This document shows positions 1 through 15,900 of a stretch of 19,577 nt of DNA, in pieces. The notes beneath the pieces were generated by a model that did no database searches, had not been told where the DNA came from, and saw nothing but the letters and a program-made list of their open reading frames with translations. This DNA comes from a virus (taxonomy: Duplodnaviria; Heunggongvirae; Uroviricota; Caudoviricetes). Each line of letters starts with the position of its first letter. Positions within the stretch are counted from its first letter, which is position 1. Location: IMG/VR virus record IMGVR_UViG_2671180460_000010, positions 1 through 19,577 of that record. One strand, 5' to 3'. The translations under genes and the position numbers were made by a program.

Positions 1-19
1 CTAATTGATAAATAAAAAT

Positions 20-1315
20 TTAATTTTGCATCGCTTCGTTATGGGGCATGGTTGGGGCAAACTCGCTTAACTGTGTATTTAACAGCGTTACCTGCGCATT
101 ATTATTTTCTGACATCCATTTCCCGTACACCTGAAACACCATTTGCGCATCTGCATGACCCATCTGGTTTGCAATGAATGCCGGGTTAGCTCCTGCTGTT
201 AACGACCAGCAGGCATAAGTGTGTCTCGACTGATACGATTTGCGATGGCGGATTCCGGCACGCTTTACCGCTGCGTCCCACATCTGCCTTATTGAGTCAA
301 CGGTAAAATGGTCACCATACTTTTTTACTTTCGCTGACACTTCAGGTTGAAAAACAAAGGTACATTTTTGTTTCTCTGTTCTGCCGAATTCTCTGAGGTG
401 AACATCGATGATATGCTCTTTGCTCAGTCTCGTTAGTGCCATCTGACTCCGAAGAGCGTCTATTGCTGGCTTAATAAGGTGAATCACACGATTGGTGCCT
501 GCCTGCGTTTTTGGTACTGTAAAACGGTCTTTTGCCAGGTTTCTTCTGATCATCATTGTTCCATTTTTCAGATCTATATCTTCCCATCCAAGCGCACATA
601 GTTCACCAGGGCGAATCCCCGTATAAACGGAAACACACCATAAATTTTTGGCTTGCTGATTTCTACACGCGTCAATAAGGCGGATAAACTCCTCCCGGGA
701 AAGTGGATCTGGGATGGTTCTCGACTCCTTTAATGGTGAGATCCCCTTAAATGGATTATCTGCCAGGTAACCGTTATCAACACCAAACTGGAACACGGCA
801 TAAAGATTTGTCATGTAATTATTTACGGTAACAGCCGATCTCCCCGGTTGTGTAACAATATAATTACTTTTGGGGATCTGGTATCCAGTAAGTAACTCTT
901 TACGTACCGCTAACAATTTTTCTTTATTAATCGACGAGGCAAGATTTTTTTCACCGATTATGCTTAAGACGTTTTTTATTACAGCACGGTATGTATTGAG
1001 TGACGTTCTGGCTACTTCAGTTTCTTTCAGTGCCAGAAATTTTTCAGCCAGTTCCTTTATGGTTAAATCTTGTCGGGCCTCACCAAATTTTTCCAGATTG
1101 TGTGAGGAGGGAAACTGTTTTGCATAGTCAAAAACGCCGGTTTTTATTGCGTAACAAACAGAGGCGCGCAACTCTCCTGCAATGCGTCTGTTTTTGGCTG
1201 TGTCAGGGACCCCAAGATTTTCCCTGACTCTTACGCCTCTATAAACAAACCAGATACGTAATTTCCCTCCATGGTTTTCCACGCCTGTCGGATATTTCAT
1301 TTCAGCTTCTCTCAT
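20..1315 (-). CDS. int: Phage tyrosine integrase (site-specific recombinase)
   Basis: 431-aa ORF. The C-terminal region has the tyrosine-recombinase box II pattern (RHTYA...GANPAFIANQMGHADAQMVFQVY) and an upstream conserved Arg context (TGIRPGEL). It sits at the prophage end directly downstream of an excisionase-like gene. The true start may be the internal Met (MKYPTG, 1300) rather than 1315. Confidence 0.9.
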   Translation of the reverse strand: MREAEMKYPTGVENHGGKLRIWFVYRGVRVRENLGVPDTAKNRRIAGELRASVCYAIKTGVFDYAKQFPSSHNLEKFGEARQDLTIKELAEKFLALKETEVARTSLNTYRAVIKNVLSIIGEKNLASSINKEKLLAVRKELLTGYQIPKSNYIVTQPGRSAVTVNNYMTNLYAVFQFGVDNGYLADNPFKGISPLKESRTIPDPLSREEFIRLIDACRNQQAKNLWCVSVYTGIRPGELCALGWEDIDLKNGTMMIRRNLAKDRFTVPKTQAGTNRVIHLIKPAIDALRSQMALTRLSKEHIIDVHLREFGRTEKQKCTFVFQPEVSAKVKKYGDHFTVDSIRQMWDAAVKRAGIRHRKSYQSRHTYACWSLTAGANPAFIANQMGHADAQMVFQVYGKWMSENNNAQVTLLNTQLSEFAPTMPHNEAMQN

Positions 1316-1335
1316 TGGTTAGTATTGTTTTTTAG

Positions 1336-1587
1336 TCAAGTAAGATGGCGTCTTGGTCTTGCCGATGCCTGGCGCTCAATCCAGCGGTCAATTTCTTCCA
1401 GGTTGTAAAAGCATGGGCTGTTATCCCATGGCATACCGTCATGAGCGACATGCTTATATTCCCTTCCTTCCATAAACGATTTTTCCCTGGCTTTTTTTAG
1501 AGTTCCCTTTTTTATTCCTTTCAGTGCAATTAGTTGCTCTTCGGATACCCATTTACCGGGATAGACAATCATGATTACTTCGCTCAT
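1336..1587 (-). CDS. xis: Excisionase-like protein (putative Xis / recombination directionality factor)
   Basis: 83-aa ORF immediately upstream of int on the same strand, 20-nt gap. Small basic protein; the resemblance to the DUF1233-type 'putative excisionase' family (KWVSEEQLIALKGIKKGTLKKAREKSFMEGREY) is recalled from memory, not searched. Confidence 0.65.
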   Translation of the reverse strand: MSEVIMIVYPGKWVSEEQLIALKGIKKGTLKKAREKSFMEGREYKHVAHDGMPWDNSPCFYNLEEIDRWIERQASARPRRHLT

Positions 1588-1657
1588 CGCTTTTTATCTC
1601 TTACATCAGATGAGCGCCGGTTGCAGAATACCAGTCACAACCGGCGATGGTTGAACA

Positions 1658-4114
1658 TTAAAAATCAGCCTGATTCGGGATCAGTTTTTGCCAGATAGCT
1701 GAAACGTATTTTGCCTGGTGGCGGGCATCATCCAGTGCATTATGGCGCTCACCTTCGAATGGAATAGCCGTTCTGGCATCGAAGTCTATAGCTTTCCCCA
1801 GCTCAACGATTGTGCGTACATCGCGATCGTTGTAGTAACGCCACGGGCAGGGGATCCCCTGCCGTTCGTATGAACGGCGCAAAATCGTGTTGTCGAAGTT
1901 GGCTCCATTTCCCCAGACCTGAACAAAAAATTCACCGGAGTTTTCGTCGATAAATTCTCGCAATTGTAACAGTGCATCATCTAACGGGATTTCATCGGTC
2001 ATAATGGCAGATTGCGCTTCGCGTGATTGCTTCAGCCACCATTTAATGGTGTCCCGATCAATGACTCCGCCAGCAGTTTCCAGATCGATAGTCTTACTAA
2101 ATTCCGGTCCCATATCTCCGGTTTGCGGATCGAAAAATATTGCACCTATTGAGATAATCGGGGCATCAGGATTTTTTCCCATGGTTTCGAGGTCGATCAT
2201 TAGATGGTCACACGTCCTGCTGGTGGATGTGATTTCGTGATGACCGTTCACCTTAATTGAGTGATCTGCCGCCTCGCCAGTTTCATTATCGCTGGCGTGG
2301 TCCTGAGCGCTGCCAGCATTCTCCTTGTGTGGATGTTCAGCGCCTTCCATTTCCTCCGGATCATTTTCCTGAACTTCAACCTGATTCTCTTCATCGAATG
2401 TTTCCAGGTATGTTGCGTCGCCCATCACCGCGCCACAATCAGGGAAGTTGCCGCTGCCGGTCTGACCGCAGACGGTGCAAGCTTTTTCCGGTTCCTGTTG
2501 CGCTGCTGGTTCATGTTGTTTCGTTTCTGGCTCGTTTTGTAACGCATTTGGGCTGTTTTGTTCCGCTTTCTGGTCGTTCTGTTCCGTTTCTTGCTGGTTC
2601 TGATTCACTGAATCGCGGGTTTCAATCCCCTTCACCCATTTCGGATCATTCGGGTCGCTAATCCCTGCAACAAATTCACCGCGAGAGGCCGCAAGCAACT
2701 TATCGGCGTCAGGCTGGCCGATATTGGCTGCCTGCATAATTTTGTTTACTTCGTCAGCGGTAACTTTCACCTGATTAACTGGATCTACCTGTTCCTGAGT
2801 ATCCAGCGATTGCGTGTCCTGGCGATGTTCAGTTGTATCCGGTTCCATTGTTTCAGCCGTTGCCTGTTCATCTGCCAGTACGCCAGACGGTTGCGGTTTT
2901 TCTTCATCATTTTTTTCTTCTTCTGTTTCTTGCCCGGCAGCCAGCTCGCGGTTAACTTCTTCCAGGATATCTTTTTCCGGTGTATGTCGTGCAGCAGTGA
3001 GAGTTTCCTTGCTGGGGTTCTCGTGATCAGTCTCCGTTAAGTAGGCGTTGATATACCCCTGAAGGCGTCCCGGGTAATGATAAAATTCAGGGTGTGCGCT
3101 CCGGATAAGCGCAAAAATAGCGGCGCGGGAATAATCCAGGATACCCGGGATTGCGCGAAGTGCTGCGGACCATTCTTTGAACGGGCTTTCTTTCTTCCGG
3201 ACGACTTCTTTTGCGCGACGATAAACGCTGCCCGGAATTTCATAAATATTAAAATCCATCGGAAGTGTGGCCGCTGCAATCTCCACATCCAGCGTATCGA
3301 AGGTGTGTACTAAATTAGGATTGCGATCGGTTTTGTTCCCTCCACCGGCATTAGCACCGGAAGCCGTGCGGGTAATGCGTGAAACACGATTTCCTTTCAT
3401 CCACTCTTTTGTCAGCAGACCGCGATCGGTGTAGTCAGCGCCCAGGTATGCTTCGAAAAAAGCAGTCATCAGTCCCAGGTCTGAATTACCAGGATTAGGG
3501 AAAACTTTGTCCGTGTCACGAACCAGTTTGTGGAGATCGCGAATTTCCAGCGGTTCGAGTTGCGCTGCTTTATTTGAGATGGCCAGAGCGGTAACGGCGG
3601 GAAGTTTTTCATCCTGTGCGTTATGTAATGCGCGCAGTTCGTCCCGCGAAACGTGTGTGATCGGTTTTTCGCTGCCGTGCTGTGCCAGCCATCGAACAGG
3701 CAGAATCTGACCTGAAACCGGCAGGAGCATGTTCTCCTCAATCTCCGTCATGTCTTCGCCGTTGACGTTGGTATTGTCAGTGCTGGCTGGTTTGTCCTGC
3801 GCAGAGTGAGAGGTCTCAATAAATACCATTGTTATACCATCTTCCCCGCCTTTTTCGTATCGATTGCAGAATTCGGTATCAAACACGCCTTCCGGAGGAA
3901 GGTCATTCACAATGGGTAAATGGACGCGAACAGGTTTTTTAAAATCCTCTTCGTCAAATCCGGCATCGTCCATTGCGACAACACCGCGTGATATTGCAAC
4001 CGATAATTTTTTTGCTGTGCGCCAGTAAAAACCGCCTTTAATCCCAAGGCGTTTTCTGACTTTGTCATTTTTGGCTTCGTAATATAGTGCAATTTCTTCT
4101 TTATCAGCGCTCAT
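1658..4114 (-). CDS. Large phage protein with C-terminal DnaQ-like DEDDh 3'-5' exonuclease domain (often annotated exodeoxyribonuclease VIII-like); long acidic/Gln-rich central linker
   Basis: 818-aa ORF with GAGG RBS 7 nt upstream of the ATG at 4114. The C-terminal ~180 aa carry Exo I (MIDLETMG), Exo II ([12 protein letters not shown]) and Exo III (HNALDDARH) motifs. The central ~250 aa are low-complexity E/Q/D/T-rich. Position matches the recombination-gene slot of lambdoid phages. Confidence 0.75.
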
Positions 4115-4191
4115 TGATAAACCTCGTAACTATTTTTAGGGTGAACAAATCCCTGCCATTTCTGACATATAAAAATGAAACCGGATATTAA

Positions 4192-4395
4192 TTACGGTGC
4201 TGTTTTAAGTCCTGCCGGGACTTCGTTATTATCCATGCGAATAACTTTATCGACCGGATAACAGTTACCGGGAATTTTCTGTTCATCTGCGGCAGCCATG
4301 CATTCTTTCATTGAGCTGTATACGCCAGTAACCATGTCAACTGGTTCACCGGAAACAAGAAAAACCGTCAGAACAAGTGCAAATGTGGTATTCAT
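4192..4395 (-). CDS. Small hypothetical protein with N-terminal signal-peptide-like hydrophobic segment
   Basis: Internal Met start (MNTTFALVLTVFLVSGEP...) preceded by AGGA. Its ATG overlaps the stop of the upstream gene in an ATGA arrangement (4392..4395), suggesting translational coupling. 67 aa with 3 Cys. Confidence 0.45.
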   Translation of the reverse strand: MNTTFALVLTVFLVSGEPVDMVTGVYSSMKECMAAADEQKIPGNCYPVDKVIRMDNNEVPAGLKTAP

Positions 4396-4580
4396 TGCCA
4401 GTATCCTTTTTGCATCAGGCGTGAACGGGCCATCATTGAAACAATGCAAACCTTATTTAATGAATCCGGCTCATGCTTTATCTGGTTAATGGCATCCTCA
4501 ATAAAAGTTTTATCGCCAGTGATAACGCCAATTTCAAAACGAGTTTCAGGCGTAGTGGAATTGAGTAATAACGTTTCCAT
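4392..4580 (-). CDS. Small hypothetical protein (62 aa)
   Basis: Start METLLLNSTTPETRFEIG with GAGGA RBS upstream; ATGA overlap with the next gene. One arm of a 19-bp inverted repeat lies just upstream of its RBS. Confidence 0.45.
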   Translation of the reverse strand: METLLLNSTTPETRFEIGVITGDKTFIEDAINQIKHEPDSLNKVCIVSMMARSRLMQKGYWQ

Positions 4581-5081
4581 TATCGCGTCCTCAACAATGA
4601 ATTTTGTGATGCGGTGCCTGGTGCCTCCAGGTGACGTTAACCAGTTAACAATTAACGCCGGATACAGGGAACCCATAAACACCCGATACGGGGGAACTAA
4701 TCGCTTTTTAACTGTTCCGCGTGCGCTGAGCCGCATTCACCGCATCACAAAATTCACTTTAAAAATGGCGGACATCAGCCAGCAATTAAACTGATGCCGC
4801 CAAAGGTCAATACTCAACATGGGTTGTTGCAGCGGGGTTGTCACTCAGGCGTATGGTCAACCTGACAACCCGGTGCTACCAATGGGGGTAAGGATAACCC
4901 CGCCATACTTACCGCCGCGCCATTTCGCGGATTGCCACAACCGGAAGCGCACGGTCGAAGAAATCTAACGACAAGCCTTCTAAGGAAAAGAAACCTTCGC
5001 TGTGCGCTTTCGTGTTGTGTGCCTGCTTTTAACCACATCAGGCGAGGTGGTTTCCGTCATTCCCCAACGACAAGAAATTTG

Positions 5082-5087
5082 TATAAT
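5082..5087 (+). promoter_or_regulatory. Candidate sigma70 -10 element (TG-adjacent TATAAT) for the 5119..5637 gene
   Basis: ttTGTATAATcc lies 31 nt upstream of the ATG at 5119. The -35 is weak (ttcccc region), consistent with an extended -10 type promoter. Confidence 0.4.
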
Positions 5088-5118
5088 CCGGATACCCCAA
5101 CAACAAAGAGAGTTAAGA

Positions 5119-5637
5119 ATGCTATCTGGAATAACTTCATCAATAACGGCAATTAAAGTCTCGATTGATTTATTACAGGTAATACTTGATGCAAAAAGCC
5201 AATCTGAACGTGAAAAGGCTGTCTACGAAATGCGTCGCCAACTGGCAGACTTACAAATACAGAACGCAGAGCTAGCGAAAACGCTCGCGCTTCAGTACGA
5301 GGAAATACTCTTGCTTAAGCAAAAATGTCATGAAATTGACGAGCGTAATCGAAAACTTGAATGCTATACGATACACAAAACTGGTTTTGGGCATTTTGTC
5401 TATGCTTTCAGGAACAGCCTCGACGAAGAAGACACATGTTTTCACTATGCCTGTCCCAATTGCTATCAGCATGGTGTAATAGCAATACTTCAACCTGTTG
5501 AAATTGGTGAGCATGATAAGTTCCATATTTCTAAATGCCTGAAATGTGATTCGCGCTTTAAATTTGAACGCAATGATGACTATATACCGCCCCCATCTGA
5601 AGAAGAGATAGGTAGAGCATTGAGCAGCAATCCGTAG
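5119..5637 (+). CDS. Hypothetical coiled-coil protein with C-terminal CxxC...CxxC zinc-ribbon-like motif (172 aa)
   Basis: Start at internal Met (MLSGITSS) with GAGAG RBS. Predicted heptad-rich central segment (QLADLQIQNAELAKTLALQYEEILLLKQKCHEIDERNRKLE). C-terminus has CPNC...(22 aa)...CLKC. Opposite strand to all neighbours, with its own promoter. Confidence 0.6.
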   Translation: MLSGITSSITAIKVSIDLLQVILDAKSQSEREKAVYEMRRQLADLQIQNAELAKTLALQYEEILLLKQKCHEIDERNRKLECYTIHKTGFGHFVYAFRNSLDEEDTCFHYACPNCYQHGVIAILQPVEIGEHDKFHISKCLKCDSRFKFERNDDYIPPPSEEEIGRALSSNP

Positions 5638-5799
5638 GTTATTGCTGTTGTGGATATCCAGATTGTTAAAGAGCATGCCGGAAGGTTATCCGTGTCCGGC
5701 GCACGACCACACGTAGCAGCGTGTTGGTCTCCATTTTTAATTCACCCCTTAATGGAGGATAAAATAATCGTGGTGCTGGTCGGCTCGGTCCCGCAGGTG

Positions 5800-6447
5800 T
5801 TACCCTTTAAACCAGTCAATCCAGAGCGGATAGTGTTCAGCATAAATATAGCTATACACATCCAGGTTGTATTTGCGGTCTGTCCTTAGCAGGTCGCAAA
5901 TACAGGCCGCAGCTTCCAGGGCAGCAGCTTTGTTGCTGAATAACCATGTAGCAACATTCCGGCGATTATCTGTATCCCACTCTTTTGTGAGGGCTGACAC
6001 CACGAAGGAGCCGTTGGTGTTGCCATCAAATACTTCCGTTTCCAGATTTTTAAGTAATGCCTGGTGAATTTTTGCCAGGTATTCAGTCGGAATTTCGCCA
6101 CGAATTCGGATAAGGTTGTCATAAACAAACATGTTCCCCGCATATGGCGATTTTTCTTTCTTTTGTTCACTGGCAGGCTGGTCAATTTCGTCTTCGGTTG
6201 GTTTCGTATTGATGTTTTGCGTTATCGTTTCTGCAATGGGCTTTGCTTTATTTTCTACACAATGATTGTTTGTGAACGAATCTGAATACAGTCCGGTAAA
6301 AGAATTGCGGACATGATTTGATAAATTTCTGATGAACACTTTATCTACTAATATCATTGGGTTCCGCGCCAGTTGCGAGCGAATCACATCAGCGGCCATT
6401 TCCTGTATTGAAATTGGTAAATCTTTAAATTCCATAGTCAACCTCAT
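5800..6447 (-). CDS. Hypothetical protein (215 aa), second gene of the leftward early operon
   Basis: Long ORF with GAGG RBS. Start is 6447 (MRLT) or 6435 (MEFKDL). No motif I can assign to a known family. Confidence 0.6.
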   Translation of the reverse strand: MRLTMEFKDLPISIQEMAADVIRSQLARNPMILVDKVFIRNLSNHVRNSFTGLYSDSFTNNHCVENKAKPIAETITQNINTKPTEDEIDQPASEQKKEKSPYAGNMFVYDNLIRIRGEIPTEYLAKIHQALLKNLETEVFDGNTNGSFVVSALTKEWDTDNRRNVATWLFSNKAAALEAAACICDLLRTDRKYNLDVYSYIYAEHYPLWIDWFKG

Positions 6448-6459
6448 CAGTCGGTGGTT

Positions 6460-6666
6460 TTAAATCACTCGCGAAACGTTTAATGCCGCGCTTTTTGCCA
6501 GAGCGGTAATATCCTGCGTCACTGACGCCAGTGTTTCAGAGAGGCGCTCTTTGTGATCAGTGGCCTGCTTCAGGTCATTAATGGCGCGTATCTTCCCGCG
6601 CATCCACTCATAAAGTTCATCATCGGTATAGCCTGGCGCGATGATGACGGGTTCTCGTTTCTGCAT
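6460..6666 (-). CDS. Hypothetical protein (68 aa), first gene downstream of the pL-like promoter
   Basis: ORF 12 nt upstream of the 215-aa gene on the same strand, about 180 nt downstream of a strong leftward promoter. Not Arg-rich, so not an obvious lambda N-type antiterminator. Confidence 0.5.
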   Translation of the reverse strand: MQKREPVIIAPGYTDDELYEWMRGKIRAINDLKQATDHKERLSETLASVTQDITALAKSAALNVSRVI

Positions 6667-6854
6667 GCTGATTCCTCTCAGTGCTGTTTCCCCTTAACGC
6701 CGGGGTAGCGGAACAAAAACCTGCTGCATAGTTAAAGTTGAACCCTGCCGTCATGTTCATACGCCTCGGGCTGGCTACTTAACCCCTGACCACTGCCTGG
6801 TAACTCGAAGTATTGCCCTGCGTTCTGTGGGATGGGGTGGGTTGGCATGGGAAA

Positions 6855-6898
6855 ACTATAGGTAATGCCTAATTATTTGTCAATAGGCTATGCCTAAT
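6855..6898 (-). promoter_or_regulatory. pL-like early-left promoter with overlapping operator half-sites (OL-like)
   Basis: On the minus strand: TTGACA (plus coords 6878..6883), 17-nt spacer, TATAGT (6855..6860). The -35 is embedded in ATTAGGCatagcctATT, and further GCCTAAT half-sites occur at about 6864..6876 and 6913..6925. Confidence 0.55.
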
Positions 6899-6991
6899 GA
6901 TTTAAGGGCAACCTAATAGGTGATGGTGTGTGGGAGAGGTAGTAGGAGTTAACTAACGGGATCTAGGAATTTCCCGTCGGACCATATAAGT

Positions 6992-7468
6992 TTAAGTACC
7001 TGTCTTGGTGATATTCTGGCTTTTCCGTTTTGATTCTTGATTTTTCAAATAGTTACCTACCTTCATTTCCATTGCGGCAATGTAGGCGCGAACGTCATGA
7101 TCAACCCAACTAGGCTCCGTAGCATTTCCAGATAAGAGGAAAGCTACAATTGCTCTTTTTTCATCAGAGGCGGCTTGATAAAGGCTGTTTATGTCTAAGA
7201 GTTCACTTTTTGTATCTGAAGTGGATGGGGTTGGTATGGGGTATTCGTTAAGCCCCCAATGCTCTGGACCAACCACATCAGAAAAGAAACGCCATAGTTC
7301 TGGAAGTTTGTCTTTACTTATCGAACCTTTCTTAATCCAGTCATGGATTGATGGTGGTTGGACTTTGAAATGACGTGCGATCTCCGCCTTTGATTTGACG
7401 GCCCCTGATGCAATTTTTTTGTTAATGGCCTGCTCTATCGCTCGGCCTAAGTCTTTACCACTAAGCAT
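6992..7468 (-). CDS. Prophage repressor, HTH (XRE-like) family, RacR-like; no C-terminal S24 peptidase domain evident
   Basis: 158-aa ORF with GGAGA RBS. N-terminal HTH-like segment (KSKAEIARHFKVQPPSIHDWIKKG). Sits between mirrored promoters/operators and is divergent from a Cro-like gene. Size and arrangement match the Rac racR-ydaS-ydaT layout. Confidence 0.7.
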   Translation of the reverse strand: MLSGKDLGRAIEQAINKKIASGAVKSKAEIARHFKVQPPSIHDWIKKGSISKDKLPELWRFFSDVVGPEHWGLNEYPIPTPSTSDTKSELLDINSLYQAASDEKRAIVAFLLSGNATEPSWVDHDVRAYIAAMEMKVGNYLKNQESKRKSQNITKTGT

Positions 7469-7520
7469 TGCTTAATAGTCTCCTATGCGTATCGCGTTAG
7501 GCAATCCCTATCTTTAATGT

Positions 7521-7570
7521 ATTAGGCATAGCCTATTGACAATGATATTAGGCGCAGCCTAATATCATTG
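7521..7570 (+). promoter_or_regulatory. pR-like early-right promoter with operator palindromes (OR-like)
   Basis: -35 TTGACA (7536..7541), 18-nt spacer, -10 TAATAT (7560..7565). A 31-bp perfect palindrome CAATGATATTAGGC-gca-GCCTAATATCATTG (7540..7570) overlaps the promoter. A second site ATTAGGCatagcctATTGACAA (7521..7542) is the exact reverse complement of 6877..6898. Confidence 0.6.
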
Positions 7571-7592
7571 TGTGTTTTTTGGAGTTCACTCG

Positions 7593-7916
7593 ATGAAAAA
7601 AGAGAACTATTCATTCAAACGAGCTTGTGCTGTTGTCGGTGGGCAATCAGCAATGGCTAGGCTTTTAGGTGTATCACCTCCAAGCGTAAATCAATGGATC
7701 AAAGGTGTACGTCAGTTACCTGCTGAGAGATGTCCTGCGATTGAACGAGCAACAAAAGGTGGTGTCCTGTGTGAAGAACTTCGTCCTGATGTTGATTGGT
7801 CATACTTACGACGCTCGTCATGTTATTCGCAGAATATGTCGATGAAGCAACCAAATGACGAAAACGATCATACCCGAAGCATCAAGAGGCAAATGATTCA
7901 TGAAAATCAAGCATGA
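7593..7916 (+). CDS. ydaS: Cro-like HTH regulator, YdaS family
   Basis: Start at ATG 7593 with GGAG RBS. HTH signature (ACAVVGGQSAMARLLGVSPPSVNQWIKGVRQLP). Divergent from the repressor, and its stop overlaps the start of the next gene. Confidence 0.8.
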   Translation: MKKENYSFKRACAVVGGQSAMARLLGVSPPSVNQWIKGVRQLPAERCPAIERATKGGVLCEELRPDVDWSYLRRSSCYSQNMSMKQPNDENDHTRSIKRQMIHENQA

Positions 7917-8325
7917 ACACATCCGCATGGCGATGAATGCCTGGGCACATCTGAACGGTGAAAAAGTTCCGGCTGCGAAAATTACCAAAGCGTATTTCGA
8001 ACTGGGTATGACGTTCCCGGAACTGTACGACGACAGCCATCCGGAAGCCCTGGGCCGTAACACCCAGAAAATTTTCCGCTGGGTGGAGAAAGACACTCCT
8101 GATGCGGTTAAAAAAATTCAGGCGTTGTTACCAGCGATCGAAAAAGCGATGCCGCCTCCGCTGGTGGCCCGAATGCGCAGCCACAGTTCCGCTTATTTTC
8201 GGGAGTTGGTAGAGACGAAGGAACGGCTGGTGAAAGATATTGATGATTTCGTTGCATCAGCGATCGTTCTGTTCGATCAGATGAATCGTGGTGGCCCGGC
8301 AGGAAACACTCTGGCTGTGCATTAA
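7900..8325 (+). CDS. ydaT: YdaT-family protein (CII-like / putative toxin of the debated YdaS-YdaT pair)
   Basis: 141-aa ORF starting MKIKHEHI, overlapping the YdaS-like gene by 17 nt. Same position as ydaT in Rac-type immunity regions. Confidence 0.7.
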   Translation: MKIKHEHIRMAMNAWAHLNGEKVPAAKITKAYFELGMTFPELYDDSHPEALGRNTQKIFRWVEKDTPDAVKKIQALLPAIEKAMPPPLVARMRSHSSAYFRELVETKERLVKDIDDFVASAIVLFDQMNRGGPAGNTLAVH

Positions 8326-8338
8326 TTGGGTAATAAAT

Positions 8339-8848
8339 ATGAGTAATGACAAAAAATTGACACTGAGCGTTTACGAAAACAGTCCGCACATCTGGCGTGG
8401 CGGTTTATCTGATGTGGAGCTGGCAGAGTGGTTGATACATAAAGCTAATGCGCTGCTCTGGCGTTTGTCAGCCAGAGAGCAGCGCAAGGAAACCAGAATA
8501 AAGCTGGCTGATGCAGAAGCGTGTGCCGGGCTTATTGAGGATTATACAAATCTTGGTATTTCTTCAGCAGAGAGTGATCCCATTCAGCCTCTGAGCAGGG
8601 AGTCAATCCAGCACGCTGGTTGTATGGCACATCTTGTAACTGCTCGTCAACATGAGGTGGGTATTGGATCACTTCCGGTGGGATATTCGCTGATTACAGA
8701 GCTGGTTGAAGCAAGAAAATCAGTTCAGAAAAAGAGAGATGACGCACTTCAATTATTGAGAGAGCACTATGGCGCGATACCAGAATGCGAACAGCGTCGA
8801 TACCCTGAAGGTTATGAATGGATGCAGTCTCTTTTTGAAGCTCGCTAA
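8339..8848 (+). CDS. Hypothetical protein (169 aa)
   Basis: ORF starting at internal Met (MSNDKKLTLSV) immediately after the YdaT-like gene, in the early-right operon. No assignable motif. Confidence 0.55.
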   Translation: MSNDKKLTLSVYENSPHIWRGGLSDVELAEWLIHKANALLWRLSAREQRKETRIKLADAEACAGLIEDYTNLGISSAESDPIQPLSRESIQHAGCMAHLVTARQHEVGIGSLPVGYSLITELVEARKSVQKKRDDALQLLREHYGAIPECEQRRYPEGYEWMQSLFEAR

Positions 8849-9065
8849 TCAATATGTCGAGACGAAGGTATGTTTCGGCGCGCAGCCAGGCTCTGTAATC
8901 CGGGAGCATTTCGGGGCTGTTACACCAGCGGTTTGTTGCTGCAACATTTAATACGTGAGCCTGATAAAGGCTTTTCAAAAAATACATGTCGAACCTCCTC
9001 TGGTTCTGTCGATTGGGAACCACAGATTATATCCGGAGGAAGGTTCGGCACCAGATGAGGTAGCC

Positions 9066-10175
9066 ATGCGTGATTACGCAAAAGTTTCTCCGCGATTCTG
9101 GCTGGGAGAAACGGGGAGAGAACTTAGAAAGGCGGGTGCAGAAGCGCAAGTTGTTGCTTTTTACCTGATGACATCCCCTCACGCAAATATGCTGGGTTTG
9201 TATTACCTGCCAGTTTTATACCTTGCTCATGAAACCGGGCTTGGTCTGGAAGGGGCTTCAAAGGGGCTTAAAAGGGCTGTTGAAGCTGGTTTTTGTAGCT
9301 ATGACCATGATGCCGAGATGGTCTGGGTCCATGAAATGGCAGCCTGGCAGGTTGGGGAAACGTTGAAGCCTGGCGATAACCGTTGTGCAGGTGTCAGGAA
9401 TGAGTATGCATCATTACCTGAAAACGCTTTTCTGTCAGCGTTTTACGACAGATATAAAACGGATTTCCATCTGGATGTGAGGCGGAATAATAGCCGAAAT
9501 TCGGTAAGGGGCTTCGAAGGGGCTTTTAAGGGGCTTCGAAGCCAAGAACAGGAGCAGGAGAAAGAACAGGAACAGGACAAAAACACTATAGCTCATGGCG
9601 AAAAAAACACCACGAACCAGGCAGGGGATGTTCAGACCGTAAATTCTGGTCAGCCAGCAGGCACGACACCGGAAGCCGATTCGGCGTATGCGCTGAAAGC
9701 CGATTCGGGCGCTGTGCAGCAGGTGATGACCGCAGGGTCGGAGCAATCACACCAACTGCAGCAGCCTGAAGCCGATTCCGCCATTCAGCGGGAAGCCGAT
9801 CGGGTAGTCCCGGAAAACACCGGGCGGCCTGTGGGACGAGTGGATTATCCGGATGTGTTCGAACAGGTCTGGCGGGAATACCCGTTGCGTGCCGGGGCAA
9901 ACCCGAAGAAATCCGCATTCAGTGCCTGGAAGGCCAGATTGCGCGAGGGGGTGCCACCAGAGACCATGCTGGATGGTGTGAGGCGTTACGCGAGATACCT
10001 GGCGGCGACCGGGAAAGCGGGAACGGAATTTGTTCAGCGAGCGACGACGTTTTTTGGACCGGACCGGAATTTTGAAAACCCCTGGTTGCTCCCGGTAAGC
10101 GGCACGAACAACCAGCGTTGCGTGAATCACATTTCTGAACCGGATACCGAAATTCCGCCGGGGTTCAGGGGGTAA
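9066..10175 (+). CDS. Replication initiation protein (lambda O-like / replisome organiser) with internal iterons
   Basis: Long ORF directly upstream of a DnaC-like gene with a 6-nt gap. ATG at 9066 has a GAGG RBS; an in-frame GTG at 8955 is an alternative start. The coding sequence contains two clusters of 11-bp-phased AAGGGGCTT repeats and an A-rich tract, as in lambdoid O genes that contain ori. Confidence 0.6.
   Translation: MRDYAKVSPRFWLGETGRELRKAGAEAQVVAFYLMTSPHANMLGLYYLPVLYLAHETGLGLEGASKGLKRAVEAGFCSYDHDAEMVWVHEMAAWQVGETLKPGDNRCAGVRNEYASLPENAFLSAFYDRYKTDFHLDVRRNNSRNSVRGFEGAFKGLRSQEQEQEKEQEQDKNTIAHGEKNTTNQAGDVQTVNSGQPAGTTPEADSAYALKADSGAVQQVMTAGSEQSHQLQQPEADSAIQREADRVVPENTGRPVGRVDYPDVFEQVWREYPLRAGANPKKSAFSAWKARLREGVPPETMLDGVRRYARYLAATGKAGTEFVQRATTFFGPDRNFENPWLLPVSGTNNQRCVNHISEPDTEIPPGFRG
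9250..9620. repeat. Putative replication origin: iteron clusters (AAGGGGCTT x3 at 9250..9279 and x3 at 9506..9540, 11-bp phasing) plus A-rich tract (9545..9620)
   Basis: Direct reading. Repeats start at 9250, 9261 and roughly 9271, and at 9506, 9517 and 9528. They are followed by caggagcaggagaaagaacaggaacaggacaaaaacac...aaaaaaacacc. Confidence 0.4.
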
Positions 10176-10181
10176 CGGGTT

Positions 10182-10928
10182 ATGAAAAATATTGCGGCAG
10201 GTGGTGTTCTTGAACGCATCCGTAAGCTGGCCCCGCAGCATGTAACCGCGCCGTACCGGACAGTGGACGAGTGGCGAGAGTGGCAGCTTGCAGAAGGGCG
10301 AAAGCGTAGTGAGGAAATTAACCGCCAGAATCGCCAGATCCGGGTGGAGAAAATTATGAAGCGTTCCGGTATCCAACTGTTGCACCAGAAGTGTTCGTTT
10401 GCGAATTACCAGGTGAAGAACGACGGGCAACGATACGCGTTGAGCCAGGCGAAATCTATCGCCGATGAACTGATGACCGGATGCACAAATTTCGTGTTCA
10501 GCGGTAAGCCGGGTACCGGAAAGAACCACCTTGCAGCTGCCATTGGTAATCATCTTCTGACGAAAGGTCACAGCGTGATAGTGATAACGGTGGCAGATGT
10601 GATGCTGGCGTTACACGGCAGCTACGACAACAAGAACTCGGGCGAAAAATTTTTGCAGGGGTTGTGTGACGTCGATCTGCTGGTTCTGGATGAAATTGGT
10701 ATGCAGCGGGATACGCGCAATGAGCAGGTTACGCTGAACCAGATAGTCGATCGCAGAACGGCCTCGATGCGTAGTGTCGGAATGCTGACAAATCTGAACC
10801 ACACGGCAATGAGCGCCCTTTTAGGCGAACGGGTGATGGACCGCATGACCATGAACGGTGGTCGCTGGGTGAATTTTAACTGGGAGAGCTGGCGTTCAAA
10901 TGTCAGCCATTTAAGGGTTGTGAAGTAA
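10182..10928 (+). CDS. DnaC-like replicative helicase loader (IstB-like AAA+ ATPase)
   Basis: Walker A (FSGKPGTGKNHLAAA) and Walker B (LLVLDEIG) motifs. Tightly follows the O-like gene. 248 aa. Confidence 0.9.
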   Translation: MKNIAAGGVLERIRKLAPQHVTAPYRTVDEWREWQLAEGRKRSEEINRQNRQIRVEKIMKRSGIQLLHQKCSFANYQVKNDGQRYALSQAKSIADELMTGCTNFVFSGKPGTGKNHLAAAIGNHLLTKGHSVIVITVADVMLALHGSYDNKNSGEKFLQGLCDVDLLVLDEIGMQRDTRNEQVTLNQIVDRRTASMRSVGMLTNLNHTAMSALLGERVMDRMTMNGGRWVNFNWESWRSNVSHLRVVK

Positions 10929-10942
10929 TTTCAGGAGGACTC

Positions 10943-11335
10943 ATGGCAAGCGTTTTTACACCCGAACAGCGGGAAGAACTGAAGGCACGAATTATCGGGC
11001 TGATACACAGGAACAAACGCATGACGATGTCGCAACTGGAGAGGGAAACGGGGGCGGGCTGGCATACGGTCAGACGTTGTCTTGTGGATGTGGTTGCTTG
11101 TGGTGATTTGTACATATCCGGTAAACACGGTGTTTTTGTATCAGAACAGGCGTATCAGGCGTGGTGTAAAACTCCGAAGAAAGCTGACCCGGCACTGGTC
11201 CGGAAGTTACCTGATGGTGAAATCCGTCGCTACGACAGAGACATGAACATAATTTGCCGGGAATGCCGTAACAGCGAATCAATGCAACGTGTACTGGCGT
11301 TCTATCGGGGTAATTTTCAGGAGGTGATGGAGTGA
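10943..11335 (+). CDS. Hypothetical protein with N-terminal winged-helix-like segment (130 aa)
   Basis: ORF with AGGAGG RBS (tttcaggaggactcATG). Possible HTH at MSQLERETGAGWHTVRRCL. Its stop overlaps the next gene's start (GTGA). Confidence 0.6.
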   Translation: MASVFTPEQREELKARIIGLIHRNKRMTMSQLERETGAGWHTVRRCLVDVVACGDLYISGKHGVFVSEQAYQAWCKTPKKADPALVRKLPDGEIRRYDRDMNIICRECRNSESMQRVLAFYRGNFQEVME

Positions 11336-11628
11336 GGGCGAGGGTTTATATCGCCGGTCCAATGACGGGCTATGAAAATTTCAACCGTGAAGCATTTCAC
11401 AGGGCGGAAGAGGAACTGAAACGGGAAGGGCATACCGTCTTAAACCCGGCAGTACTTCCGGACGGACTGACTCAGTCGCAGTACATGGATATCTGCATGG
11501 CGATGATACGTTGCGTGGATGCGATTTACATGCTGAATGGCTGGCAGCGGTCGGCGGGTGCCAGGGCAGAACTGGCGCTGGCGGAGAAGCTGGGGCATGC
11601 AGTTATTTTCCAGGAGGAGGTACAGTGA
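11332..11628 (+). CDS. DUF4406-like protein (nucleoside 2-deoxyribosyltransferase-like fold)
   Basis: GTG start with AGGAGG RBS 8 nt upstream. N-terminal VYIAGPMTG motif typical of this family. 98 aa. Confidence 0.65.
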   Translation: MRARVYIAGPMTGYENFNREAFHRAEEELKREGHTVLNPAVLPDGLTQSQYMDICMAMIRCVDAIYMLNGWQRSAGARAELALAEKLGHAVIFQEEVQ

Positions 11629-11909
11629 ATATCGACGCAACAATGACGATTGGTACGGCCCTCAATACGGGGCTGGCGCTTCTTGGTTGGTGCTACGTCA
11701 TGTTCTGCTCATGGCGGTGGCTGTCACTGATGTTACTGAAAAAATGGAATAAACGCTGTAAACAGACGCAGCGGCAGAAGGCAATGAATGCGTTTGTTGA
11801 GACCTTCGATATTGACAGTATGGAACCAGGAGAGCCAGCTCGCGTGATTAGCAGAGGTGACGTTGTAATTCTTGTATACCGGAGTGAAGAGAAAAATGAG
11901 CGAAATTAA
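11625..11909 (+). CDS. Small hypothetical membrane protein (94 aa)
   Basis: GTG start overlapping the upstream stop (GTGA), with AGGAGGAGG RBS. One strongly hydrophobic segment (TIGTALNTGLALLGWCYVMFCSWRWLSLMLL). An alternative ATG start lies at 11640. Confidence 0.45.
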   Translation: MNIDATMTIGTALNTGLALLGWCYVMFCSWRWLSLMLLKKWNKRCKQTQRQKAMNAFVETFDIDSMEPGEPARVISRGDVVILVYRSEEKNERN

Positions 11910-12052
11910 CTATCAGGCACTGCGTGAAGAAGAGAAAGCATAATCCAAATCTGAATAATTAAATTCAGCACTGTAAATAAAACTTAATCCTTAACCGGAG
12001 GGATTTCTGCACCCTCAGAACATCAGGAGGCCGCCCGAAAGGGTGGTAATGA

Positions 12053-12271
12053 ATGGTCACATTATTTAGAAAAAAATATCCGCGAAGGAGTAGAACAACA
12101 GAATTTTTGTTTCTCATTCTGTTTATCGTATTGATGATACCGATATCCCCGCTAATTTTTGTCTGGGCAATCGGGAAAATAATTGAGCCAGTTATTGAAT
12201 TGTATAACGACGTGGTGTGGGCGTCGTTCAACACACTGCACAATAAAATTAATCCGTATAAGGAAAGCTGA
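12053..12271 (+). CDS. Small hypothetical membrane protein (72 aa) in AT-rich segment
   Basis: ORF with GGTGG-type RBS. Hydrophobic core (FLFLILFIVLMIPISPLIFVWAIG). Its stop lies 1 nt before the HNH gene start. Confidence 0.35.
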   Translation: MVTLFRKKYPRRSRTTEFLFLILFIVLMIPISPLIFVWAIGKIIEPVIELYNDVVWASFNTLHNKINPYKES

Positions 12272-12272
12272 T

Positions 12273-12638
12273 ATGGCACTGACGAAAAAACAACGTGCAG
12301 AGCTGCGCATGAAGTTCGGCGGTCGCTGTGCTTATTGCGGCTGCGAACTTGGCGAAAAGTGGCATGCAGACCATGTAAAACCGGTCATTCGTTTTGATGG
12401 AAATATGCTTCACCAGGAACGTGACGATATATCCAACATGGTTCCGGCATGCCACCCATGCAATCTGCACAAGCATTGCAGTAGTCTGGAAGATTATCGG
12501 CGAATTATCAGTGATGGTCGTCGTGAATTCCTTGCGTCCGGGAAAGGCAAAGCGCTGGTTCGTATGGGATTGGTTGAAATGAAATCTGACCCGGTTGTGT
12601 TCTGGTTTGAAAAATATCAAGAAGGGGCTACGGCATGA
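12273..12638 (+). CDS. HNH endonuclease
   Basis: Start at ATG 12273 with AAGGAAAG RBS. Cys/His HNH pattern: CAYCGC...WHADHVKP...NMVPACHPCNLHK. Confidence 0.8.
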   Translation: MALTKKQRAELRMKFGGRCAYCGCELGEKWHADHVKPVIRFDGNMLHQERDDISNMVPACHPCNLHKHCSSLEDYRRIISDGRREFLASGKGKALVRMGLVEMKSDPVVFWFEKYQEGATA

Positions 12639-13033
12639 CCACTTTTACCAATAGCAAACTAACAGACGAATACGTTTCAAATGCAACGTTGATTCGGCTC
12701 ATTCTGTGGGCTGACCAGCACAATAGCCATTATGTTGTAGCGGCTCTGCGCGAGCTACAGGAGCGCCGCAAGGCTGATAGTGTGTCTGTAGAAATCAACG
12801 ACGACATGGCTTACGCATTCCATCATGCACTGTCAGACTCATCTCCAGGTGCTGATGAGGTAGAGGAAATTAAGGCCGGGTTGCGTGCTGCCTTTGCCAA
12901 TGTCACTGTCCAGCCGGTGCTGATAGTGCCGGATGAAATGGATTTGCTTACCTGCCATCTCGACGGTGTAACTGAAACATATGCTGATGGCTGGAACGCC
13001 TGCCGCGCCACCATGCTTAAGGGAGATAAATAA
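12635..13033 (+). CDS. Hypothetical protein (132 aa)
   Basis: ORF in the operon, overlapping the HNH stop by 4 nt. No assignable motif. Confidence 0.55.
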   Translation: MTTFTNSKLTDEYVSNATLIRLILWADQHNSHYVVAALRELQERRKADSVSVEINDDMAYAFHHALSDSSPGADEVEEIKAGLRAAFANVTVQPVLIVPDEMDLLTCHLDGVTETYADGWNACRATMLKGDK

Positions 13034-13617
13034 TGATTAATCGAACCAAACTGGAACACATTCTCGAATATGCCAGGCAGCAGAAATGTATTGGGCAACT
13101 TTGTAAAATTCCACCAGGAGATATGGTTGAAATCGTGGAAATGGCCATGCGTAAGGCTGGCAACTCTCCGGTAACTCCGGCTCGCCTGCCTGGCGGTTTC
13201 ACCATTGAGGATGCGAAGGAGTTACATGAAGACCTGGTACGCAGCCACATAAGCCAGGCTTTAAGTTGTGAGAGGATGAAAAAGAACGATCGCGATGCTG
13301 ATTTGCGCTGGATTCATGGCGTTATAGTTCAGGCCGCGTGGTTTGTAAAAGCGTCACTGGAGCAGAATGCGCTAACGGGCAACTCTCCGGTAACACCGGC
13401 TGACTGGATAAGCTGTAGTGAGCGAATGCCTGAAAAGAACCAGAACGTGCTTATTTCGGTGAATTTCGATAGCTCTCTGGTTGAACCGCTAATATGCTCC
13501 GCACGCTATACAGGAAGCACATTCCGGCGAGGAGAAGCAACGATTAAGCCGGGTAATGGTATTGAGCAGGCAACTCACTGGATGCCGCTACCGGAGCCAC
13601 CGCAGGAGGTGAACTGA
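13033..13617 (+). CDS. DUF551-like phage protein with internal GNSPVTPA repeat
   Basis: C-terminal HWMPLPEPP motif characteristic of DUF551. A 24-nt near-exact direct repeat within the gene encodes GNSPVTPA twice. Confidence 0.65.
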   Translation: MINRTKLEHILEYARQQKCIGQLCKIPPGDMVEIVEMAMRKAGNSPVTPARLPGGFTIEDAKELHEDLVRSHISQALSCERMKKNDRDADLRWIHGVIVQAAWFVKASLEQNALTGNSPVTPADWISCSERMPEKNQNVLISVNFDSSLVEPLICSARYTGSTFRRGEATIKPGNGIEQATHWMPLPEPPQEVN

Positions 13618-14012
13618 TGAAAAATGAAGTCGACAATGTTATCACCCTTGTACAGCCAAAATCAGAGGAGGAAGGACTCCTCAACGTTGTGATAACCGAC
13701 AGAAAAAGCGTCGAGCAAAAATGCTGTCAGCATTTCCGTACAACAATTTCAGAAGTGAATCGTACGATTACCTGCAAACGGTGTGGATTGGCTTTAGATC
13801 CGTTTGAACTTGTTCTCGACCGTGCGAGAAACGGTGAAAACATCGTGTCAGAGATTAAATCACTCTATACAAAGCGGGATGCTCTTCGTGAAGCTGTGGC
13901 AAAACTTGAACGTGAAGAGAAAAACGCCAAAGCGCGGTTACGAGCAGTCAGGACAGCAATACTGTATGCGGAAAATGACCTTAAAAATATTGAGCAGGAG
14001 GTGAATCGATGA
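13617..14012 (+). CDS. Hypothetical protein with Cys-rich N-terminal half and coiled-coil-like C-terminus (131 aa)
   Basis: ORF with ATGA overlap to the upstream gene. KCCQHF...TCKRCG motif; Lys/Glu/Arg-rich C-terminal helix. Confidence 0.55.
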   Translation: MKNEVDNVITLVQPKSEEEGLLNVVITDRKSVEQKCCQHFRTTISEVNRTITCKRCGLALDPFELVLDRARNGENIVSEIKSLYTKRDALREAVAKLEREEKNAKARLRAVRTAILYAENDLKNIEQEVNR

Positions 14013-14086
14013 CCGAAGCATTCACAACGGCAGGAATTGCGATGGCGGTGGCGCTGGTGGTGTATTCGATTTGCCGCTGGGGATAA
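14009..14086 (+). CDS. Possible 25-aa hydrophobic peptide (MTEAFTTAGIAMAVALVVYSICRWG)
   Basis: ATGA-coupled to the upstream gene, AGGAGG 6 to 7 nt upstream, and followed immediately by a terminator. Too short for confident calling. Confidence 0.3.
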   Translation: MTEAFTTAGIAMAVALVVYSICRWG

Positions 14087-14092
14087 CAAACA

Positions 14093-14122
14093 AAAACCCC
14101 GGATTGACGGTCCGGGGTTTTT
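14093..14122 (+). terminator. Rho-independent terminator ending the nin-like operon
   Basis: CCCCGGA-ttgacgg-TCCGGGG stem-loop followed by TTTTT. Confidence 0.7.
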
Positions 14123-14344
14123 GAAGGAAACAAACAGAAACAACAATTGCCGTTATCTGTTGCCACCAATGACAAGTAAACGTATCTCAGGCGAGCGCAT
14201 TGCGCCGTTCTGACGCGGATACATTAGCCTGGGCAGAAGGTTCTGGCAATAAAAAATAGCGTTTTCTTATCGGTGTCGGTAAGATTGTTGCGGGTGCTTG
14301 AGGCTGTCTGCCTCGGGCATGCCACTGTAAGGCAGACAGAGAAA

Positions 14345-14447
14345 AGCCCCAGTTAACATCACGCGTCCTGCAAGACGCTTAACATTAATCTGAGGCTCAA
14401 TCCATGCTGAACACATGTAGGTTAGCCTCTTACGTGCCGAAAGGCAA
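14345..14447 (-). ncRNA. Putative Sok-like antisense RNA and its promoter (type I antitoxin)
   Basis: Minus-strand promoter: -35 TTGCCT (plus coords 14442..14447), 17-nt spacer, -10 TAACCT (14419..14424). The architecture mirrors the R1 sok promoter, which sits antisense to the hok leader. The 3' end is not defined. Confidence 0.35.
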
Positions 14448-14460
14448 GGAGAAGCAGGCT

Positions 14461-14616
14461 ATGAAGCAGCAAAAGGCGATGTTAATCGCCCTGATCGTCA
14501 TCTGTTTAACCGTCATAGTGACGGCACTGGTAACGAGGAAAGACCTCTGCGAGGTACGAATCCGAACCGGCCAGACGGAGGTCGCTGTCTTCACAGCTTA
14601 CGAATCTGAGGAGTAA
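14461..14616 (+). CDS. hok: Hok/Gef-family type I toxin (51 aa)
   Basis: MKQQKAMLIALIVICLTVIVTALVTRKDLCEVRIRTGQTEVAVFTAYESEE is a near-match to the Hok/Gef family (HokD/RelF-like). The leader GGTGCTTGAGGCTGTCTGCC...AAGGAGAAG parallels the hok mRNA fold-back elements. The in-frame upstream extension from 14404 may correspond to a mok-like translational coupling frame. Confidence 0.85.
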   Translation: MKQQKAMLIALIVICLTVIVTALVTRKDLCEVRIRTGQTEVAVFTAYESEE

Positions 14617-14687
14617 GAGACCTGGCGGGGGGATTTTTATCCCCCGCCACCTCTGATGTGTCAGGCATCCTCAACGCACCCGCACTT

Positions 14688-14710
14688 AACCCGCTTCGGC
14701 GGGTTTTTTC
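14688..14710 (+). terminator. Rho-independent terminator at the 3' end of the hok transcript
   Basis: CCCGC-ttcg-GCGGG followed by TTTTTT. A GGCGGGGGGA/TCCCCCGCC hairpin precedes it at 14624..14648. Confidence 0.7.
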
Positions 14711-14746
14711 ACGTACTGTGGTTGTGAATACGATTGGTATTAGGCT

Positions 14747-14765
14747 ATGCTAACAACATTAGCAT
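14747..14765. promoter_or_regulatory. Operator-like perfect inverted repeat ATGCTAA-caaca-TTAGCAT upstream of the antitoxin/Doc pair
   Basis: Direct reading; lies about 60 nt upstream of the small ORF at 14828, near TTGTGA/TATGCT and TTGACT promoter-like hexamers. Confidence 0.4.
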
Positions 14766-14827
14766 GACTAATTTTGTATTGACTTAATTTTTGTTAAAGA
14801 ACAGGACGGAGAAGTAAGGGTACACCA

Positions 14828-15007
14828 ATGAGCTACGCACTAAAAAAACACCCGCGATTGACTATTCCCCCTCGCGATAAAAGCGTTGTGGCAGATCCGC
14901 GCCCGGCTATCGATGAAAATTGTACTCATCGTGAGCAGGTGAAAAATGCTTTCGATTTCGGTTTTTCTCGTTACGAGAAGGCAATGGAAGATCTTTCAAA
15001 AGTGTAA
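14828..15007 (+). CDS. Small protein upstream of Doc-family toxin; putative cognate antitoxin (59 aa)
   Basis: Short ORF (below the ORF-track cutoff) with AAGGG RBS, ending 18 nt before the Doc-like gene. Typical antitoxin-toxin gene order. No family assignment possible from sequence alone. Confidence 0.45.
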   Translation: MSYALKKHPRLTIPPRDKSVVADPRPAIDENCTHREQVKNAFDFGFSRYEKAMEDLSKV

Positions 15008-15025
15008 TGATAGGTATTGTGCTCT

Positions 15026-15511: not shown

Positions 15512-15525
15512 AGATGCTTCTAATG

Positions 15526-15555: not shown

Positions 15556-15626
15556 TGCGTATTCTGGTTTACAATTTGCACGCCAGCCTGAACAACTGGC
15601 ACCTGCTGCGCCAGCAGAGAAAACCG

Positions 15627-15899: not shown

Positions 15900-15900
15900 C

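Follow-up and report, generated by a model that had tools for sequence, protein, structure and literature searches.

The question raised by this locus is what a lambdoid prophage does with a gene that begins as recE and ends as something else. The window analysed, 19,577 nucleotides in length, comprises positions 1 to 19,577 of the IMG/VR virus record IMGVR_UViG_2671180460_000010 (Caudoviricetes) and represents the early region of such a prophage in lambda orientation, extending from int to Q and a DNA methyltransferase gene. The open reading frame (ORF) at 1658..4114 on the minus strand has an ATG start and an intact frame encoding 818 amino acids (aa), and in the early-left operon it directly precedes xis and int, filling the slot that is occupied in Rac by recE and recT. 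RecE–RecT is a workhorse of recombineering. An initial annotation of the window had pointed to a DnaQ-like nuclease in this slot, to the lack of an accompanying annealase and to a function that might be something other than classic recombineering.

We consider it near certain, from the translation, the matches to Pfam, NCBIfam and PHROG and an AlphaFold2 model, that the protein has three parts, namely a RecE-type N-terminal module, an acidic tether and a DEDDh exonuclease domain, and that the last of these stands in a cassette relation to the nuclease of RecE. The N-terminal module, which is common to RecE and is divided into three sub-domains, comprises aa 1 to ~393 (2936..4114, minus strand) and includes a PF06630 Exonuc_VIII match at aa 56-189 (nt 3548-3949, minus strand; E 4.8e-29). 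AlphaFold2 models this module and the C-terminal domain with confidence and leaves the middle of the protein disordered. Structure comparison detected no recognisable fold relatives of the N-terminal module.

The C-terminal domain (aa 637-808; 1691..2206, minus strand) is of the DnaQ-like, Rv2179c/DexA type. It matches PF16473, the Rv2179c-like family, with an E value of 4.4e-68 and 228.9 bits against a cutoff of 27, covering profile positions 2-177 of 177. The catalytic residues Asp641, Glu643, Asp741, His791 and Asp796 are each retained in at least 90% of about 50 aligned homologues, and the predicted local distance difference test (pLDDT) score of the domain exceeds 92. A Foldseek search placed T4 DexA (PDB entry 8KEL) at the top with an E value of 6e-9, followed by RNase T, Orn/REXO2, ERI and Cap18, and DexA is also the sole solved sequence relative (phmmer E 1.7e-6 for the domain against 8KEL). 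By sequence, residues and fold the protein is a bona fide DEDDh member of PF16473, in line with the DnaQ-like nuclease of the initial annotation, and no PD-(D/E)XK domain was detected by Pfam anywhere in the 818 residues. Homology predicts a metal-dependent 3'-5' exonuclease activity for the domain.

The relationship to DexA deserves comment. Comparison with the structures 8KEL and 8KEN gives template modelling (TM) scores of 0.65-0.72 and the same five catalytic residues, making DexA the closest solved relative of the domain. Nevertheless, the 227-aa DexA stands alone, comes from a virulent phage, carries extra loops and is only 21-23% identical to the domain described here. The host enzymes RNase T, the second-best structural neighbour, ExoI and ExoX adopt the same fold; they differ in being housekeeping enzymes with 17-19% identity and no RecE scaffold. 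The PF16473 DEDDh family as a whole is represented in 691 phage genomes from many hosts, mostly by stand-alone proteins of ~185 aa, and in phage Flotzy such a stand-alone form fills the same slot adjoining int.

Between the two folded parts lies the acidic, glutamine-rich tether (aa 371-636; 2207..3004, minus strand), delimited by composition, pLDDT and substitution pattern. It contains 61 Asp or Glu residues against 19 Lys or Arg, a net charge of -42; Gln accounts for 24 residues, and the hydrophobic fraction is 0.17. About 240 residues of it are disordered, with pLDDT values of ~30 at aa 395-451, 495-545 and 552-630, in good agreement with the long disordered linker first noted from the sequence. 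Up to aa 620 the tether derives from RecE, and so does the Cys motif. Within it, BLASTP alignment and column occupancy mark a conserved island at aa 472-497 (2624..2701, minus strand) that is almost the same in RecE. Here the model shows a short helix at aa 470-477 and block-mean pLDDT values of 74-76 across aa 471-490, and the island is a candidate short interaction motif. The CTVCG...C motif singled out in the initial annotation is indeed present, at aa 546-561 (2432..2479, minus strand). To that observation we add that it is a RecE-inherited, damaged zinc knuckle with a family norm of four Cys residues, CTACGQ[TS]GGGNCPDCG (CxxC-x7-CxxC), the version in RecE being CNACGQTGGDNCPDCG. Among 130 database homologues with this motif, all four Cys were kept in 128; the third is replaced by Phe in our protein and the same change occurs in one of the 130 (P0012).

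The boundary between RecE and the new domain is sharp. BLASTP aligns aa 58-620 with residues 50-591 of Rac RecE at 56% identity and finds no alignment past that point. The NCBIfam equivalog model for exonuclease VIII, NF007259, is matched over positions 1-602 of 877 only, with a score of 896 that falls below the cutoff of 1269. DNA-level similarity to recE stops near window position 2255. Taken together, the DNA alignment, the BLASTP ends and the NCBIfam range locate the breakpoint at 2250..2260, about codon 620, between GEAADHSI and KVNGHH. This position coincides with the start of the RecE PD-(D/E)XK nuclease domain as placed in a review of the enzyme (PMC11611040), and queries with that nuclease domain (phmmer and tblastn) returned no match to the gene or to the window.

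In comparison with Rac RecE/RecT the two systems thus have in common the N-terminal ~590 residues, the tether, the island, the Cys knuckle and an operon position upstream of xis and int. They differ in that Rac supplies a 5'-3' PD-(D/E)XK nuclease and recT, whereas the window has a DEDDh 3'-5' exonuclease and no recT. Lacking both the nuclease domain and the RecT partner, the protein does not qualify as a RecE equivalog, yet many sources label it exodeoxyribonuclease VIII; the names given by NCBI to its copies are 'exonuclease' and '3'-5' exoribonuclease domain-containing protein'. We know of no function assigned to the ~600-residue N-terminal part of RecE.

A wider survey indicates that the junction is not peculiar to this prophage. 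One genome per species was scanned with an alignment of a 37-residue motif from the N-terminal module, which gave 62 loci, all from Enterobacteriaceae except one in a probable contaminant bin; 50 of these were untruncated. In all 30 loci where the scaffold carries a RecE-type nuclease, a gene of the RecT family (PF03837, E 8e-40) follows directly. In none of the 20 loci with scaffold and DEDDh domain is this the case, the excisionase and integrase genes coming directly instead. Distant relatives of the DEDDh type, with 36-45% identity, preserve the same layout and position. The split in recT together with these distant relatives identifies the unit of exchange as 'PD-(D/E)XK plus recT' versus 'DEDDh alone' on a common scaffold. 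The domain swap is a cassette exchange inside a gene, found across the Enterobacteriaceae, and the case against classic exonuclease-plus-annealase recombineering at such loci is strengthened by it. The contaminant bin (JAGZPX010000007.1, locus L095) is labelled Veillonella parvula and holds an Escherichia coli-type copy with 100% motif identity; binning contamination is almost certainly the explanation.

The scaffold has further forms. Phage Tritos, the best phage match to the window, to which it is 90% identical across roughly half of the initial 8 kb, encodes a protein (L004, 16659-19130; P0123) that has the tether and the DEDDh domain in common with ours. Its first ~245 aa are unrelated, the nonsynonymous divergence (dN) over the N region being ~0.95, which adds another internal mosaic junction to the gene. 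Amongst representatives of clusters formed at 50% identity, eight variants have no nuclease domain of any kind (P0130, P0172, P0173, P0184, P0191, P0192, P0194 and P0224). These proteins finish in a short helical segment, the last residues often being HGE or GHE, and suggest an independent function for the N-terminal module. They are probably the 'RecE-2' proteins of a recent survey of lambdoid recombination (Rec) modules (PMC12315714). In P0139 (L092, 6001-8996) and P0227 the scaffold is joined to a C-terminal tail of 270-350 aa that may constitute a fourth kind of ending. When this tail was considered as an annealase no Pfam or PDB match was found, the PHROG label being only 'exonuclease' (phrog_2489/7838); a Sipho_Gp157 gene comes after the scaffold gene in the P0139 locus.

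Three apparent relatives were considered and rejected. Fusions of the RecE N-terminal part to RecT fragments (P0128, P0222) might be taken for a designed architecture; their RecT domains are truncated, and deletion is the likely origin. DLP12 exoD is not a K-12 remnant of the gene, as its translation corresponds to a lambda-Exo-like C-terminus and not to a DEDDh domain. Qin ydfE, suggested as an N-terminal remnant by faint PF27432 (YdfE_C) matches in distant relatives, has no BLASTP similarity.

Purifying selection acts on the gene, which is intact. The ratio of nonsynonymous to synonymous substitution rates (dN/dS) is lowest in the DEDDh domain (~0.10), higher in the N-terminal module (0.24-0.33) and highest in the tether (0.38-0.51). 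It is also common. The DEDDh segment was located in 4089 of 5426 complete E. coli genomes (75%), at 8157 places and with up to seven per genome, against 1736 of the same 5426 genomes (32%) and 1827 places for the canonical RecE nuclease segment. Copies are present in the sequenced phages Tritos, mEp460, HannyBb and others. That the gene might be a decaying remnant with no selected function is effectively excluded by these data, for although many prophages are defective, one knuckle Cys has been lost here and fragmentary and fused forms exist, the frame is intact, the active site complete, dN/dS close to 0.1, sequenced phages carry the gene and its position is kept at 36-45% identity.

If the DEDDh form replaces RecE, where is the annealase? 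Excisionase (1336..1587, minus strand; phrog_539, E 2.7e-35) lies directly downstream of the gene and leaves no space for one, as first supposed, and integrase follows (20..1315, minus strand; phrog_1, E 1.5e-75). No annealase (RecT, Bet, Erf or Sak), Gam or single-stranded DNA-binding protein (SSB) was recognised by PHROG and Pfam among the 30 ORFs of the window from int through Q to the methylase gene, a negative to which small ORFs of no known family could be exceptions. The window gave no tblastn match to RecT, Bet, lambda Exo, Gam or the RecE nuclease domain, and the same was true of 80 related viral contigs (with flanks of up to 10 kb on each side), of phage Tritos and of E. coli C5, which carries a 99%-identical prophage. 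In total, 83 related sequences yielded no annealase, Gam or lambda Exo. An upstream ORF of 215 aa (5800-6447) was considered as a hidden annealase and rejected; it has no relative in Pfam, the PDB or PADLOC and occurs in only 32 of 83 related loci. The nin region nevertheless encodes RusA (16960-17319), so that the phage retains a Holliday-junction resolvase despite the lack of an annealase.

The distribution of Chi sites provides a clue to how recombination might proceed. The window contains eight copies of Chi (GCTGGTGG), when 0.56 would be expected, and none of 200 shuffled sequences reached this number. Six are on the lambda top strand (plus strand, beginning at 2219, 8160, 14053, 15942, 15999 and 18408) and two on the minus strand (16584 and 19223, the latter extending to 19230); the 6:2 majority is oriented so as to act on RecBCD that enters from the right end. 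The site at 2219..2226 is antisense within the gene, some 30 bp from the RecE/DEDDh junction, and is kept in 77 of 80 loci of the E. coli clade and in one of ten loci of other species. Over the 80 related loci the strands divide 269 to 50, although these loci are near-identical and hence not independent. Across species, early regions of the DEDDh type contain 0.47 top-strand Chi per kb and those of the RecE-plus-RecT type 0.18 (a ~2.6-fold difference; Mann-Whitney p 2e-6). Such a Chi-rich genome points to reliance on host RecBCD.

This pattern has a published counterpart. The survey of Rec modules cited above (PMC12315714; Genome Res 2025) describes DnaQ-like nucleases in lambdoid Rec modules, an abundance of Chi in lambdoid phages that carry no anti-RecBCD function and a nuclease-only class, named after Tritos, in which all four phages are Chi-rich. 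Tritos shares with the window the layout of int, xis, nuclease, ydfD-like gene and dicB, the absence of a single-strand annealing protein, SSB and anti-RecBCD function, and many top-strand Chi sites; the window fits the Tritos-type class. RecBCD was found to aid the growth of LLS, a phage of the group lacking anti-RecBCD functions that has no Rec module, and this aid is shown there for phage LLS only.

The mechanism that we favour, and put forward tentatively, is that the protein trims 3' ends and so feeds host RecBCD-Chi recombination. The protein would be made from pL upon induction or during lytic growth, and the N-terminal module would bring it to the site or partner used by RecE itself. 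There, the tethered DEDDh domain would strip single-stranded 3' tails from the ends of linear phage DNA and leave them blunt or 5'-tailed. Host RecBCD could then load or reload, run to the many Chi sites of the phage and pass the DNA to RecA, and recombination-dependent concatemers would be obtained with no annealase of the phage's own. In support of such a scheme, we note that 3' tails block the reloading of RecBCD and that host 3'-5' single-strand exonucleases relieve the block (PMC5592934), and that in DNA repair 3' ends are trimmed by RNase T (PMC3942315). T4 DexA is a DNA 3'-5' exonuclease with a role in intron homing (PMC12153337).

Several points weigh against this proposal. The substrate (DNA or RNA), the polarity and the partner are all deduced from homology. 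By destroying the 3' tails that RecA needs, 3'-5' exonucleases normally inhibit recombination, according to the survey (PMC12315714), and the proposed benefit would depend on timing or on shielding by RecA. The lack of a recognisable fold relative makes a targeting role for the N-terminal module a guess, and the existence of nuclease-less scaffolds means that the scaffold may serve a function unrelated to DNA ends. Expression from pL is assumed from gene order and a match to the promoter consensus. Finally, the Chi association is a correlation, and regions of the RecE-plus-RecT type are strand-biased for Chi too.

The other readings can be placed in a descending order of weight: defence or scavenging, self-sufficient annealing, an RNA substrate, counter-defence and, last, the decay already dealt with. 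The first, that the protein attacks competing phages or scavenges host DNA, seems to us unlikely, though it has possible precedents in EcD/HREX, the TONDO nucleases and T4 DexA, which acts on host DNA. T4 DexA provides the closest solved structure. EcD, a DEDDh homologue of DexA in E. coli, digests DNA containing 5-hydroxymethylcytosine (5hmC) but not unmodified DNA and protects against T4, and homologues of DexA are commonest in Escherichia (PMC12153337; NAR 2025). The TONDO nucleases (PMC13344964; bioRxiv 2026), which block RNA phages, likewise combine a DEDDh domain with a variable auxiliary domain and are encoded by prophages and plasmids, and our gene is prophage-borne with up to seven copies per genome.

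Several points count against this reading. EcD is a stand-alone, tested defence gene product with a MIDTET start and a TIPETYD end (from the published primers), whereas the nuclease considered here is fused to RecE and belongs to a lytic-phase operon; EcD-like ends were found in none of the best 150 representatives of our family. The Trp152 of DexA reported to read 5hmC aligns with Tyr761, the equivalents of Asp169 and Asp90 being beyond reliable alignment; the traits given for HREX are retention of Trp152 and Asp169 and absence of the tetramer residue Asp90 (PMC12153337). The TONDO proteins are ISG20-like, and the candidates from the BLAST arm of that study were chosen by similarity to ISG20, with top matches of less than 500 aa (PMC13344964). 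None is described with a RecE module. The PADLOC defence models gave no match to the protein, the model library being older than HREX. Moreover, the strict either-or relationship with recT is left unexplained. The gene also sits at the distal end of a leftward operon under repressor control, in the place taken by recE, a gene that we take to be silent in lysogens.

A second possibility, which strikes us as quite doubtful, is end-joining that is self-sufficient and annealase-free. The DEDDh domain would resect the 3' ends of duplex DNA, the resulting 5' tails would anneal spontaneously and the N-terminal module would hold the ends together, in a process resembling XthA-dependent in vivo cloning in E. 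coli. The gene does lie in the recombination slot, with RusA and a DUF968/HNH protein encoded in the nin region. Linear-linear recombination is boosted by full-length RecE and not by the nuclease domain alone (PMC11611040), a finding that points to an end-related role for the N-terminal module. DexA, RNase T and Orn, the closest relatives, favour 3' ends that are single-stranded or carry short overhangs over processive resection of a duplex, however; no annealing function was detectable in the protein and the enrichment in Chi is unexplained.

That the protein is an exoribonuclease acting on the 3' ends of host or phage RNA appears improbable. The Pfam family takes its name from the mycobacterial 3'-5' exoribonuclease Rv2179c, RNases are frequent among the structural neighbours (RNase T, Orn/REXO2, ERI) and NCBI calls many copies a '3'-5' exoribonuclease'. 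Set against these names is the fact that the best match in both structure and sequence is DexA, a DNase, and that the scaffold on which the domain sits is one of DNA recombination, where it takes the place of a DNA nuclease; RNase T, for its part, acts on DNA too (PMC3942315).

We give equally little credence to an anti-defence enzyme that, during lytic growth, would degrade host immune nucleic acids with a free 3' end, such as retron multicopy single-stranded DNA (msDNA) or CRISPR prespacers. Rac RecE acts on retron msDNA. The gene belongs to an early lytic operon, and the 3'-5' exonuclease family is also employed in CRISPR prespacer trimming and in CBASS, Cap18 being among the Foldseek matches. 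The occurrence of the family in phages of very different hosts, however, suggests general DNA metabolism and not a dedicated counter-defence.

Returning to 3'-end trimming in aid of RecBCD, we may ask whether it would amount to a third strategy of phage recombination, beside an exonuclease and annealase of the phage's own (Red, RecET) and sole reliance on RecBCD and Chi with no module at all. The phage would then supply a helper that conditions ends for RecBCD, Chi and RecA, with the N-terminal module as a targeting platform for nucleases of either polarity or none. We regard this generalisation as unlikely.

The remaining features of the window are those of a lambdoid early region. Upstream of the gene in the same leftward operon, a Pfam scan (PF07358/PF05358) revealed a YdfD-like DUF1482 gene (4192-4449, minus strand) and a DicB gene (domain 4392-4580, minus strand), the two together spanning 4192..4736, with a terminator-like hairpin at 4798-4771 on the minus strand. 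No DicF small RNA was detected upstream of DicB to position 5000 at the Rfam gathering score; Tritos is annotated with DicF. Beyond DicB the minus strand carries two ORFs with no assigned function and then a cI-like repressor gene. Below the latter, a consensus scan identified a pL-like promoter, TTGACA-17-TATAGT (6855..6883, minus strand; 11 of 12 matches), which from its position is likely to drive the leftward operon that ends in our gene, xis and int. An ORF of 211 aa with a CxxC...CxxC tail (5002-5637, plus strand; phrog_1244) lies antisense inside this operon in a moron-like arrangement, and a similar antisense ORF is found in 48 of 83 related loci.

The plus strand carries cro-like and cII-like genes, DnaD-like and DnaC-like replication genes, the nin region, Q and the DNA methyltransferase gene. 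In the nin region there are also a hok/sok-type locus (14292-14616; Rfam sok, 114 bits, with an ORF at 14404-14616 that matches the MokW/Hok-like phrog_251), a Doc-like toxin gene (15017-15511) and the gene for the DUF968/HNH protein, which is YdfU-like (15901-16947).

Part of this picture was already known. The domain architecture is visible in databases, and a 2025 article had reported DnaQ-like nucleases from the Rec modules of lambdoid phages. The chimera of RecE N-terminal part and DEDDh domain, its coupling to recT and its prevalence are not described in the main text of that survey (PMC12315714). In the searchable literature we found no mention of a chimeric junction at the RecE domain boundary, of the all-or-none coupling to recT, of the numerical dominance of DEDDh over RecE or of a difference in Chi density between the cassettes. 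Nothing was retrieved from the literature under PF16473 or under 'Rv2179c-like' combined with prophage, and no biochemical test of the RecE-N/DEDDh form was found.

The observations bear on the biology of RecE as well as on that of the phage. The N-terminal part of RecE is joined more often to a nuclease of opposite polarity than to RecE's own, and the exchange constitutes a natural domain-swap experiment for finding the role of this module. Thousands of database entries named 'exodeoxyribonuclease VIII' are not RecE equivalents. Should the protein prove to be a defence or counter-defence nuclease, its gene would be among the most widespread of such genes in E. coli. For the annealase-less lambdoid phages, it offers a testable candidate for the means by which they cooperate with RecBCD.

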